Source of the DNA: Candidatus Cloacimonadota bacterium
Lineage (GTDB): Bacteria > Cloacimonadota > Cloacimonadia > G963667145
Length of the DNA stretch: 64,000 nucleotides
Direction: 5' to 3'
Assembly: GCA_963667255.1 (NCBI GenBank)
Contig: OY762940.1
Coordinates: forward strand, 768,001-832,000
Part shown: piece after piece, positions 59,071 to 62,096 of the stretch
How the letters are laid out: each line of letters starts with the position of its first letter
How positions within the stretch are numbered: the stretch's first letter is position 1
Notes under the pieces: model-generated
Told to the model about the DNA's origin: nothing
The model's input: only the letters and a program-made list of their open reading frames with translations
Database searches by the model: none
Program-made: the position numbers and the translations under genes

Positions 59071-59281
59071 GGAGGGAAAATGATTTATGATATATTAGAA
59101 ATATTTAAAAAAGAGTATGAAAAAAAAGGCGATAAACTTGTCTTAGGAAGTTATAATCTAAAAGAAGGTTTGTATGTAAAAATAAACAAGAACTATGAAA
59201 TAGAATATTTTATAGTTAAAAATAAGAATAAGAAACTTTCTTACCTCGTCCTGAAAAAAGTGGACTCTATTAGGAGGAAAC

Positions 59282-59668
59282 TTGGACAAAAGAGAGAAAA
59301 CTTTTAGATATTCAAAAGCTTTCAGAAATGAGGTTCTAAAGAATGTCAAAAACAAAAAATTGACGGTTTTGGAAGCGGGTAAATATTATGGAGTGGGATT
59401 TCCAACTATTTATCGATGGTTGAAAAAAGCTAATTATGACACGCCCTGTAAGGAGGTAATTTTTGTGAAACTATCAGATCAGCACTCTGCTTTGCAAGAG
59501 ATTGAGGAATTAAAAAAAGAGAATCGTGCTTTAAAAGAGGCTGTGAGCAAGTTAACGCTCGATAAATTGTGCCTTGAAAAGTGTGTAGAAATTGGTGAAC
59601 GGGACTTTGGTATGGAATTAAAAAAAAAGCCCGAAGTACAGGAATTGAGGAAATCAGGCAGAAAATAG
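59282..59668 (+). CDS. IS3 transposase OrfA (HTH + leucine zipper)
   Basis: YSKAFR..., YGVGFPTIYRW and coiled coil ELKKENRALK. Confidence 0.88.
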   Translation: MDKREKTFRYSKAFRNEVLKNVKNKKLTVLEAGKYYGVGFPTIYRWLKKANYDTPCKEVIFVKLSDQHSALQEIEELKKENRALKEAVSKLTLDKLCLEKCVEIGERDFGMELKKKPEVQELRKSGRK

Positions 59669-60513
59669 TGGAGAAAAAGTTCCCTTTTAAAATGAATTCT
59701 GTTTGTAAATGGTTTGGGATTAGCAAGTCCGGTTTTTATAAAAAGAAGAAGCACATCGAAAAAACAAAGAAAATTGAAGATGAGATTTGCTTGCATATAA
59801 ATGCGTTACGCAAATTTGGACTTATGTGTGGAGCAAGAAAAACCAAGATTCATTTAAAGGAAGATTTTGACATTATTGTGGGCAGAGATAAATTGTTTGA
59901 TATTATGAGAGAAAACGATTTGCAAAGTAAATTTATTCGGAAAAAAGTTCAACATTCCAGTGGAGTTAAGCAAATCTTTGAGAATATGTTAACCGATGAA
60001 TTTAAGAAATCTGTTACAAAATTTGGGCAAGTAATTGTGACAGATATTACCTATATCAAATTGCCCAATAATAAGTTCTGTTACATTAGTTTGGTTGCGG
60101 ATTTGGCTACCAGAAAAATTTTGGGTTATAATGTGGCTCAAACTCTTTTGGCTGAAGAGTCGGTTAAGGTTATGCGGAAAACATTGAAAAAATATAAGTT
60201 GCCTAAAGATTGCATACATCATAGCGACAAAGGAGTGCAATATACGAGCAAATTATACACTGATTTTTTGAAGAAAAATAATTTTAGAATAAGCATGACA
60301 GGTGCGGGCAAATGTTATGATAACGCTTGTGCAGAGCGAGTTTTTAATACTTTGAAGAACGAATTTGGTTTTAATGTTGTTTTTTCAAGTTTGAAGGAAG
60401 TGCTAAGAGAGTTGAAGAATTTTGTTGATATTTATAACAATAAACGATATCATATGAGTTTGGATTATAGAACACCACAAAGTGTGTTTTTGGAGATGCA
60501 GAAAGCTGCATAA
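59668..60513 (+). CDS. IS3 transposase OrfB (DDE/rve)
   Basis: VTDITYI, HHSDKGVQYTS and DNACAERVFNTLKNE. Confidence 0.92.
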   Translation: MEKKFPFKMNSVCKWFGISKSGFYKKKKHIEKTKKIEDEICLHINALRKFGLMCGARKTKIHLKEDFDIIVGRDKLFDIMRENDLQSKFIRKKVQHSSGVKQIFENMLTDEFKKSVTKFGQVIVTDITYIKLPNNKFCYISLVADLATRKILGYNVAQTLLAEESVKVMRKTLKKYKLPKDCIHHSDKGVQYTSKLYTDFLKKNNFRISMTGAGKCYDNACAERVFNTLKNEFGFNVVFSSLKEVLRELKNFVDIYNNKRYHMSLDYRTPQSVFLEMQKAA

Positions 60514-61706
60514 TTAATAAAAAACTGAGTCCACTATTTTAGGACTGGACATCTTTTACGGATATAGATGAAAATTTAAACTATAGTGCTTATGAATGGT
60601 TTAAAGAACGAGATTATTATAGTGGATATTTGAACTCGAATAAAGCATTTTATGATAAAAAAATTCATAGTATAAATTATTTTTCTTTATTTGTTAAATT
60701 GGAAAGTTTTATTTCAACTGACACAAAAAAGATTTTAAAGAGTGAAATTATAGATAAACATTTTTTTAATCTTTGTAATTATAAAAAATTTCAAAAAAAA
60801 CAAGAAATTGAAATTATTCAAAATTTTCAAGAACATTTAAAAAATAGAGAAAGAAGAAAAGACATAATCAAGAAATATAAATTTTTAAGAGATAATTTGG
60901 ATTCTATAATTGAGGTAGCTAAGGGAAACAAAATAAAAAATTATGTTAAAGTGTTTTTTGAGGAAGATATTGGAAAATACAAAGAAGAAAGTAATATATA
61001 TTATTCTTTGAAAATATTTAATGATATCAATTATTGTGAATTTATTAATGAGGAAACATTTGGATTATCAAATTCAAATATGGGGTTAAATTCCAAAAAA
61101 CCGTATTTGGAACATAAAACAAAATTTAATACAGCTCCATTTCTAATAGAACAAAATGATGCTTTAATATTAAAAATATTTTTTGATTGGTTAAAACTTC
61201 AATCCTATAAGGATGAAGAGAACAAACCAATAGATAGATATTTGGATGATAGTTTTTTTATGCAAAAGCATTCTTCTAATGATGAAGCTGAAATTTTAGA
61301 TTTTGATTATATCCCAATAAGAGAAGATGAATTAAAAGAAACAATTTTGGTAAAAAATTATCTTTGGCTAAAAGAAGGGAAAGCATTAATTCAAGATTAT
61401 AAAATTAATAAATTAAGTCAATTTGAAGCGATAGTCGACGATATTTTTTATAACCATCAATTGATAAATAACTATTATGGCGAAGTATGGGAAAAACTTG
61501 ATAACTCTTTTGCAAATTTTATTTATATAACAAGAGATGCGATGGTATCTTATTTTAGAAAATATGATGAAAAAGGTTTTTATAATGTAGTTAGAAAATA
61601 TGGTTTAAAACTTGTAGTTGAGCATATAAAAAAAGATAGATTATTAAAAGCAGGTAAAGCTTTAAATTTGAGATTGTCTTTATTGAAATTTAAAGGAGAA
61701 AAAATT

Positions 61707-62096
61707 ATGAATATCAAACAAGTGCAGGGAAAAATTACTGAAAAGTTAATAAAATCTAATTATGATGAATTAAATACAGAAGAGTTTTTTTATCTTTGTG
61801 GGCAAATAGCTAAATATCTTATTAGTCAAAGTGAAGCATTTGAAAAGAAAGGCGATATGTTGGAACCATTTTTGAGAAGTAATAATGTTAAAAAATTAAA
61901 AAATAATATAGAGATAGAATATTTCAAATATAAACATAAAATATCAATAAATTTTCTTAAATTTAATAATGCAATGAGTTTAGTAATGGCTTATTCTGGA
62001 GAAGAAAAACTTAATGAAAACTTGGATACTTTTTTGATTGGGTCATTGAGTGAAAATATTTTCTATATGAAAAATGATGAAATAAAAGGAGAATAA
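61707..62096 (+). CDS. cas11: Putative Cas11 small subunit from an internal in-frame start in cas8b
   Basis: AAGGAG RBS followed by an in-frame ATG at 61707, giving a 129-aa helical C-terminal domain. Confidence 0.6.

Follow-up and report, generated by a model that had tools for sequence, protein, structure and literature searches.

In an uncultured member of Candidatus Cloacimonadota, an IS3-family insertion sequence (IS) with an intact transposase splits the cas8b gene of a type I-B CRISPR-Cas locus after codon 54, and cells carrying the intact allele are found in the same sample. We consider it probable that full-length Cas8b is no longer made from the interrupted allele and that interference has been lost with it. 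The insertion is a clean lesion in an otherwise complete locus.

Within the 64,000-nucleotide stretch of DNA analyzed here (the window; all features lie on the forward strand), the cas8b frame opens with an ATG at 59080, and its 5′ part (codons 1–54, 59080–59241) is separated from its 3′ part (codons 55–567, 60555–62096) by a 1310-bp element (59242–60551) lying in the orientation of the operon. The element is flanked by a 3-bp target duplication, TCT (59239–59241 and 60552–60554), and removing the element together with 3 bp in silico yields an open cas8b frame of 567 amino acids. These coordinates, the duplication and the other IS copies in the genome bear out the first-pass annotation, which had placed an IS3 insertion after codon 54 and stated that excision would restore a 567-aa frame. 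That annotation gave the duplication as TCT(T); the TCT stands, whereas the fourth T is the first base of the IS itself and matches by chance. A 4-bp duplication (TCTT) is ruled out, as it breaks the frame and all other duplicated IS copies show 3 bp. The ends of the element were set independently by the remaining five full copies in the genome. Of these, four have 3-bp duplications of their own (GCT, AGT, TAT and TAA). A generic inverted-repeat search over 50000–64000 did not place the IS ends among the 25 longest inverted repeats. Both halves of cas8b are otherwise intact, as had been claimed: they match one PADLOC model (PDLC01507, CAS-I-B large subunit) contiguously, over profile positions 1–47 and 55–556 of 559, with E-values of 1.2e-8 for the 5′ half and 1.1e-112 for the 3′ half. 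Homologs of the product are named Csh1. The 5′ part reads 21 codons into the IS to give a 75-aa open reading frame (ORF) ending at 59307, and the 3′ part is open, with no usable start before codon 439.

Elements of the IS3 family are about 1.2–1.55 kb long, with overlapping orfA (encoding a helix-turn-helix, HTH) and orfB in the −1 frame joined by a slippery site, a DD(35)E transposase with a lysine seven residues after the glutamate, imperfect 20–40-bp terminal inverted repeats (usually TG...CA, TA in some members) and target duplications of 3–4 bp. They transpose by copy-out-paste-in via a circular intermediate, using an OrfAB protein made by frameshifting. The transposase, ORF layout, size, terminal repeats and duplication seen here all fit, and on this sequence evidence the element is assigned to the IS3 family, as first proposed. 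Its orfA (59282–59668, 128 aa) encodes an HTH and a predicted zipper, scoring above the PF01527 cut-off and matching NF033516 at positions 2–87; orfB (59668–60513, 281 aa, −1 frame) has an intact DD(35)E domain (D126, D187, E223 and K230) and scores 224.4 bits against NF033516 (cut-off 160). An A9G run in the overlap (59620–59629) is the predicted −1 frameshift site for an OrfAB product. The terminal inverted repeats are imperfect and about 26 bp long (20 of 26 positions matching); the right end is canonical and the left end is TA in every copy.

The surrounding genes are arranged cas6-cas8b-cas7-cas5-cas3-cas4-cas1-cas2-array. The first gene of the operon, cas6 (58273–59070, 265 aa), scores 93.1 bits against TIGR01877 (cut-off 58.65) and matches PADLOC Cas6b; cas7 (62099–63025, 308 aa) is above the PF05107 cut-off, with a best PADLOC match to Cas7b (labelled I-B/I-C) and a score under the TIGR02590 cut-off; and cas5b (63012–63827, 271 aa) scores 148.3 bits against TIGR02592 (cut-off 97). 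The start of cas3 lies at 63830–64000 and the remainder past the window end. In type I-B systems cas3 joins an HD nuclease and an SF2 helicase; here a single gene encodes 813 aa, with DEAD, Helicase_C and PF22590 above cut-off. The Cas3_HD profile falls below cut-off (E 0.001), although the protein does carry HD, Walker A, DEIQ and SAT motifs. Cas4, cas1 and cas2, also past the window end, exceed the cut-offs of PF01930, PF01867 and PF09827. Like cas6, cas7 and cas5, these four genes are full-length, with 80–93% identity to a same-genus genome, in agreement with the earlier description of the neighboring cas genes as intact, and the Cas8b, Cas5b, Cas6, Cas7b and Cas3 profile matches support its type I-B assignment. 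Beyond the window, the intact CRISPR array (host genome G000, C1:836247–845708) comprises 125 repeats of 30 nt that end in ATTGAAAT, with 124 full-length spacers of 34–38 nt, and a second, identical IS copy sits at its trailer end. Gene order, repeat length and spacer length are those of known type I-B systems (Csh1-type Cas8b, Cas7/Csh2-like, Cas5h; PDLC01507, TIGR02592). The Cas8b subfamily, however, is mostly from Campylobacterota and has no Pfam or NCBIfam match: neither half of cas8b, nor the intact protein P0002, matched a Cas8 family in these collections. A PDB sequence search with Cas8b returned chance matches only and no solved relative.

A natively split gene, or a joined protein failing to align with Cas8b from end to end, had been named as readings at odds with a knock-out, and homologs show neither. 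The joined 567-aa frame aligns without a break, from close to residue 1 to close to residue 567, with 118 of 119 homologs. Among 70 genomic loci, a full, unbroken cas8b is present in 57 (a count that excludes L067, truncated at a contig start, and L076, which holds just the 3′ portion of a split gene), and no natural split is shared. Independent breaks in related cas8b genes are due to an IS3 element in L084 and to a Mu-like prophage in L090/L076. In a predicted model of an intact relative, the cut falls within strand 54–59, in a block of residues 1–80 with pLDDT of 78–97; the insertion would thus interrupt a predicted β-strand of the N-terminal, PAM-reading domain. This model aligns with type I-C Cas8c from residue 1–2 to the end (Z 8.1–9.8); Foldseek gave no match at E ≤ 0.001, with Cas8c chains ranked 1, 2, 4 and 7 at weak E-values of 0.18–0.75. 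Since deletion of cas8b abolishes interference in Haloferax, according to the available text of PMC6546412, loss of interference is likely here too, and in cells with the filled allele interference is likely switched off.

Cascade might still work in part if translation restarted at TTG 60630 to give a 488-aa Cas8b, acting alone or with the 75-aa N-terminal piece. Such a product is called by a gene caller (P0001) and would retain the conserved NSNK and NMGLNSKKP motifs, as the 3′ frame is open and holds most invariant residues. The start itself, however, has a Shine-Dalgarno (SD) pairing of merely −0.9 kcal/mol, compared with −11.6 kcal/mol at the cas8b start, consistent with the earlier remark that it has no clear ribosome-binding site, and orfB stops 117 nt upstream, so translational coupling would be absent. 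The lost residues 1–79, which form predicted strands of the N-terminal domain, are conserved like the remainder (mean identity 0.59–0.60 versus 0.52–0.60) and include L27, K28, G30, Y32, D74 and Y75, each conserved in 100% of homologs. A promoter-like match spans the right IS junction (60546–60575); such matches are at chance level in the scan (25 sites versus 21.8 ± 5.3 in shuffles, with one weak terminator versus 0.9). We therefore regard a working restart as very unlikely.

Loss of full-length Cas8b need not silence the rest of the operon. As there is no good restart before codon 439, only Cas11b and the downstream subunits could be made. Cas11b, a predicted internally translated small subunit of 129 aa (61707–62096), has a strong SD (−8.7 kcal/mol) and a start Met present in 119 of 119 homologs. 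A strong SD occurs in the internal-start window at 59 of 59 loci (here including L076 and L067), versus 14 of 295 control windows, and the C-terminal domain of the model begins exactly at this Met, residues 441–579 aligning with the entire 3E0Z_B chain (Z 9.8). Type I-B systems lack a separate cas11 gene and obtain the small subunit from a start inside cas8b. Such translation of Cas11 is described by McBride et al. (10.1101/2020.04.18.045682) and in the available portions of PMC13199841 and PMC11899642; the conserved in-frame Met, some 129 codons from the stop, and its strong SD recur here, whereas in this locus the small subunit is predicted, and the large subunit is broken with the small-subunit start untouched. 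From these sequence features, Cas11b is likely still made, and given transcriptional read-through a Cas8-less Cas5/Cas6/Cas7/Cas11-crRNA particle may still form. The earlier description of Cascade as knocked out holds for cas8b, which is split, but needs refining for the Cas11b start at 61707 and the downstream genes, which are intact.

The first-pass annotation also supposed that the insertion was recent and possibly polymorphic, and suggested looking for an empty site in reads. Public Logan contigs and unitigs, all from a single study that may itself have supplied the assembly, contain both alleles; runs X1 and X2 are from one sample (S1) and X3 is from another. In X1, a 17,975-nt contig skips exactly 1313 nt (59238 to 60552) and is otherwise identical over 58000–64000, and the same joint is present in X2. 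The filled allele appears in X2 as a 57-nt unitig consisting solely of junction-spanning words and carrying 29 flank letters (below a 31-letter bridging criterion), at a depth of 40.4 versus 68.5 in the flank; this ratio of about 0.6 is rough, and contig depth does not equal the share of cells. In X3, a contig bridges the left junction with 0 mismatches and about 90 letters on each side, and the right junction lies on a contig covering 60523–63146. No filled-junction contig is found among the eight records of X1, which we tentatively attribute to graph simplification; in that run the IS allele of the cas8b/array type has a depth of 84.8 versus 47.1, consistent with more than one such copy. The insertion or the allele mixture could in principle be an assembly or graph artefact of a multi-copy repeat, given that six IS copies collapse in short-read graphs and that X1 shows only the empty path. 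The precise 3-bp duplication, zero-mismatch junction records from two runs and two samples (depth 40.4 in X2; bridged in X3) and the right junction on the X3 contig make this exceedingly improbable. Because S1 contains the IS junction alongside the exact empty allele, a polymorphic and recent insertion is supported, and it is likely that a very recent, otherwise ordinary knock-out has been caught while spreading.

The empty allele is letter-perfect, and precise excision of IS3-family elements is documented, raised by high transposase levels and by the IS-excision enhancer IEE (10.1101/2023.06.07.543989, here and below as far as available). A reversible switch, in which excision rebuilds cas8b and the empty allele of S1 is a revertant, would account for this. 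A never-inserted parent, however, yields an equally perfect empty site, and copy-out transposition regenerates the donor. Excision is reduced about 1e5-fold when the host lacks IEE, and even in an IEE host it is about 1e-6 if orfA and orfB keep their native arrangement (10.1101/2023.06.07.543989). No gene for IEE, an AEP-TOTE primase with a helicase, was found in the host genome (98.9% complete) with PF22548 or the E. coli IEE protein (positive control E 1.7e-98), so frequent reversion is not expected. The stx2 insertions of IS629/IS1203v (10.1101/2023.06.07.543989) likewise involve an IS3-family element with a short duplication whose precise excision would restore the gene, but here no IEE was found in the host genome and the left IS end is TA rather than TG. 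The suggestion of reversibility is thus unsupported: reversal of the cas8b insertion is unlikely, a switch operating in S1 is highly improbable, and a parent that never took up the IS is the simplest reading of the empty allele.

Judged from its copies, the element is active: the host genome has six full copies with open frames, and one more site, around 900,889 and absent from the assembly, is segregating (depth 25.1 versus 47.1). A further low-depth insertion in X2 (4.5×) was not counted, as it decodes to a four-copy repeat at about 170–178.6 kb and is ambiguous. Five of the six full copies are flanked by a 3-bp duplication, the array copy being the one without. The cas8b copy and the array copy (C1:844322–845631), 17 kb apart, show 0 differences, as do the copies at 862 kb and 1,478 kb. 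The cas8b copy thus probably arose by copy-out-paste-in from the array copy; that the array copy came first and the cas8b copy second is only likely. A reading of S1 as purely empty, by which the array copy would have been proven older, was dropped because X2 shows the filled junction. Since the two copies are identical and direct, the 17-kb stretch between them, most of the locus, would be prone to later deletion.

Seven of eight IS sites have flank GC of at most 0.32, whereas 12.7% of 1-kb windows genome-wide are at or below 0.33. The cas locus is one of the AT-rich islands of the genome, and the landing in cas8b may reflect this target preference, which would also explain why the locus was hit twice: two hits in the cas/array locus have P of about 0.14–0.17 under the AT bias, versus about 0.002–0.003 with uniform targets. 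Selection is then not needed to explain the location. It could nevertheless have favored the insertion if interference was costly, through escape from a self-targeting spacer (as the first-pass annotation proposed) or retention of a targeted plasmid or prophage. In S1 the filled allele stands at about half depth, and it is this allele that the assembly carries; the broken relatives in L084 and L090/L076 are independent events, and such a trade-off is proposed in the available text of Sheng et al. (PMC10359306). Temperate phages of the genus are also among the targets of the array: a prophage in the relative G003 is matched by spacer 19 with 1 mismatch and by spacer 36 with 2, and one of these protospacers has TCA on its 5′ side. 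The PAM, pyrimidine-rich on the 5′ side and TCA at the best protospacers, resembles YYD, the PAM reported for Thermotoga maritima I-B1 (PMC13199841).

Against selection, the 124 full-length spacers match the host chromosome no better (best matches with 9–13 mismatches) than shuffled spacers do (9–14), so no spacer against the chromosome or a resident prophage is seen and escape from self-targeting is not supported; none matches the IS. In the host genome the position that this prophage takes up in G003 is unoccupied; of 72 six-frame ORFs of that prophage, only four (two of them overlapping at a single small gene and one resembling an integrase) and a replication-region ORF match the host, none of them structural. 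The array had no match among 50,697 phage records, nor did one 22-nt spacer core (from 1 of the 124 spacers) match viral contigs. Selection for the insertion is an unlikely explanation. A rise to about half frequency could be given by selection, drift or hitch-hiking alike. Also unlikely is a picture of two nearly equal sub-lineages whose cas operons differ by a single IS, one immune and the other without interference yet with an array of about 120 spacers and the Cas11b start, kept by selection between phage defence and uptake of a targeted element, the paired IS being the first step of a programmed-looking loss of 17 kb of the locus; if true, what CRISPR immunity costs could be tested directly in the field, and followed over time, in an uncultured phylum.

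The knock-out by an active IS is ordinary in kind and a clean snapshot of early CRISPR loss. Such events are documented and this one is therefore not surprising: Sheng et al. 2023 (PMC10359306, available text) report natural insertions in cas genes (28 by ISfinder BLAST and 163 by ISEScan; 20 IS families, 57 genera), and their E. coli assay trapped IS3 among other elements. Those cases likewise show an IS with a target duplication inside a cas gene, the locus being complete apart from this, but they come from complete genomes with one allele each, whereas here the host lineage is uncultured and both alleles occur in one sample. A literature search on insertion sequences and CRISPR in Cloacimonadota, or on IS-interrupted cas8 in metagenomes, found no comparable case, although the supplementary lists of PMC10359306 may hold a type I-B cas8b example. 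The value of the locus lies in its being a clean natural case, with a single lesion, the other genes and a long array intact, and both alleles together; given raw reads and time points, it could serve to measure whether losing interference alters fitness or lysogeny in nature, a question that underlies the patchy occurrence of CRISPR-Cas. It also presents two practical traps: the system looks dead in the assembly, although a large share of the population appears to carry a functional version, and the 488-aa Cas8b annotated by gene callers is false.

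The gene that follows cas6 (58273-59070) and starts at 59080 is interrupted after codon 54 by an inserted element of 1,310 bp (59242-60551) flanked on both sides by TCT; downstream, the sequence reads cas7, then cas5, then cas3. When the element and one TCT are taken out, an open frame of 567 codons is restored, as the first-pass annotation had proposed, although the duplication it gave as TCT(T) is the 3-bp TCT, since removal of a 4-bp version does not yield the open 567-codon frame. The genome, a single contig of 1.59 Mb, contains five further full copies that define the same ends, and four of these have 3-bp duplications of their own. 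The assignment to the IS3 family also holds: OrfB exceeds the cut-off of the IS3 transposase model and retains an intact DD(35)E motif, and orfB lies in the -1 frame relative to orfA, which it overlaps at an A9G run. Most probably, an active, AT-preferring IS3 element hopped recently into cas8b, and the resulting null allele still segregates; selection, residual function, a reversible switch and an artefact are all less likely.

Neither Pfam nor NCBIfam offers a model for the split gene, and both halves match PADLOC PDLC01507 (type I-B large subunit) in register. The gene is not natively split. Of the best 120 of 627 homologs, 119 come from other sources; their lengths are 552-619 aa, and all but one of them (118) align from start to end, in one piece, with the joined frame. 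By label, the nearest genomic relatives belong to Candidatus Cloacimonadota and the majority of the remainder to Campylobacterota. The gene is unbroken in two of five same-genus genomes; across 70 genomic loci it is whole at 57, cut by contig ends at 8 and carries internal stops at 2, with one locus cut by another IS3 element and two being halves of a single gene split by a Mu-like prophage.

This DNA is present in three sequencing runs of one study, all as Logan contigs and possibly the source of the assembly. In run X1, a 17,975-nt contig matches 58000-64000 without change apart from exactly 1,313 nt that it lacks at the site, and run X2, from the same sample (S1), has the identical empty joint. 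X2 also contains a 57-nt unitig that joins the cas8b flank to the left end of the IS, with 29 flank letters against a bridging rule of 31; its depth of 40.4, compared with 68.5 for the flank, therefore places the filled allele very roughly at 0.6 in S1, contig depth not being equal to the share of cells. The empty allele is thus present, and the suggestion that the insertion is polymorphic is supported. Among 17 of the 21 contig records, X1 has no filled junction in its eight, as an artefactual insertion might produce, but the filled unitig in X2 and the left junction bridged in X3, the second sample (depth 2.9; empty joint not seen), make an artefact the least credible of the readings.

The element is active and favours AT-rich DNA. 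Its frames are open in all six full copies, two pairs of which are identical (cas8b and array; 862 kb and 1,478 kb), and a merged loose end decodes uniquely as an insertion at ~900,889 that is absent from the assembly (depth 25.1 versus 47.1 in X1). Flank GC is at most 0.32 at 7 of 8 insertion sites, and cas8b has 22% GC against 39% for the genome; the probability of two hits in the locus is ~0.002-0.003 under uniform targeting and 0.14-0.17 with targets limited to AT-rich windows. The G000:C1 ~900,889 insertion, on the contig that holds the window, lies just past the stop of a 513-codon frame at about half depth in S1, and a further low-depth insertion is possible within a repeat at ~170-178.6 kb. 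At G000:C1:862247, 46971 and 972437, too, a copy lies where an AT-rich open frame ends (by eye apparently surface-polysaccharide and P-loop NTPase genes), so other recent knock-outs are likely.

Beyond the window end, at the trailer end of the array, lies the IS copy identical to that in cas8b (G000:C1:844322-845631, L009). Because it has no target duplication and is bordered by a 19-nt spacer stump on one side and the final 13 nt of a repeat on the other, at least ~33 nt were deleted beside it. In X2 a long contig extends from the right junction of this copy, and the cas8b/array-type IS allele at 59599 has ~1.7-1.8x single-copy depth. The array copy may therefore be older, fixed and the source of the cas8b copy; this order is only likely, because the 900.9-kb copy could be of that type or another. 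As direct repeats separated by 17,080 bp, the two copies could recombine, which would delete most of cas8b through almost the whole array.

In the model of an intact Cas8b relative (P0002, mean pLDDT 83.7), the N-terminal domain runs through one helix and two strands before the cut, which falls in strand 54-59. From residue 1-2 onwards the whole model aligns with I-C Cas8c chains (438 residues at Z 8.1 and rmsd 9.2, 431 at Z 9.8 and rmsd 14.3), with weak Foldseek E-values. A solved I-B Cascade is reported to read the PAM through the Cas8b N-terminal domain with Cas5b (PMC11096372), and cas8b deletion is reported to abolish interference in Haloferax (PMC6546412). Full-length Cas8b and interference are both predicted to be absent. 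Residual Cascade function is improbable given this cut and a Shine-Dalgarno (SD) energy of only -0.9 kcal/mol at TTG 60630, a start already annotated as having no clear RBS. The 3' half offers 17 in-frame starts as far as codon 444, and the sole strong SD among them is at ATG 61707 (-8.7 kcal/mol, the same as that of cas7); this Met is kept in 119/119 homologs (among the best 120 of 627), and a strong SD start 110-150 codons before the end occurs at 59/59 loci versus 14/295 control windows. The predicted start resembles reported internal translation of Cas11 (10.1101/2020.04.18.045682; PMC13199841). Judged from sequence, the small subunit Cas11b and the downstream subunits are possible given transcriptional read-through, and the proposed knock-out of Cascade would hold for full-length Cas8b while these parts may persist.

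Past the window end the locus continues with cas3 (813 aa, its motifs intact), then cas4, cas1 and cas2, and an array in which a 30-nt repeat occurs 125 times. The neighbouring cas genes are intact, as annotated, and all the remaining Cas proteins are 80-93% identical to those of the same-genus genome G001 and free of lesions. Spacers 19 (1 mismatch) and 36 (2 mismatches; 5' TCA flank) match a 33-kb prophage in another same-genus genome, G003, within its tail tape-measure gene. G001 spacers also match this prophage, with TCA or CCA flanks, and near-duplicate spacer pairs (18/84, 29/34, 37/44) suggest that the same targets were sampled repeatedly. From these matches, the near-duplicates and the unlesioned Cas proteins, we infer that the system once worked against phages. 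With the prophage (G003:C1:30600-63750, L029-L031) targeted by spacers of both G000 and G001, the PAM of this Cas8b subfamily is estimated as TCA/CCA, though the protospacers behind that estimate are very few. An array block is duplicated at G000:C1:842260-843270 (spacers 102-108 repeat 93-97 and 100-101), and the 101-repeat G001 array is broken by a 362-aa ORF, transposase-like by eye (L005:17875-18963).

Selection could have driven the insertion, for example as escape from a self-targeting spacer. All 124 full-length spacers differ from their best chromosomal match by 9-13 mismatches, no better than shuffled spacers (9-14), and the site of the G003 prophage is empty in this genome, which has no match for its structural genes. 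Escape is thus unsupported as regards the chromosome, and selection is an unlikely cause. The leader end without chromosomal spacers is also consistent with a very recent loss. Reversibility is unlikely, because copy-out transposition keeps the donor, IS excision is reported to be rare without an IS excision enhancer (10.1101/2023.06.07.543989), and none was found in this genome with a working positive control; reversible switching ranks just below residual function.

We take 53852-55400 to be rpsL-rpsG followed by the rpmH-rnpA-yidD-yidC block, not fusA, in the same order as in a further genome, G002. There the same cas block follows yidC (L007:6126-14738), but two inserted genes separate cas8b from cas7, one for an AAA_21/AAA_15 ATPase (499 aa) and one of 212 aa; cas3 is shortened to 732 aa and a phage-like region lies downstream. 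The block lacks cas4/1/2 and an array, and no cas1 match was found across G002.

The IS-split cas8b is a further example of an already documented phenomenon: Sheng et al. counted 28 and 163 natural cases of an IS within a cas gene (PMC10359306), and targeted literature searches found no description of this locus. In a Sulfurovum sp. bin, cas8b is broken after about codon 110 by an independent IS3-family transposase gene (L084:4340-5630; NF033516, 317.8 bits). In one Campylobacteraceae bin, the interruption of a same-subfamily cas8b near codon 90, seen on two contigs (L090:4264-4270 and L076:3995-4005), is due to a Mu-like prophage with TG...CA ends, a 5-bp GATAA duplication and genes for a phage transposase, a CI-like repressor, a nuclease and a DNA methyltransferase, so that here the CRISPR large-subunit gene is itself the site of a transposable phage.
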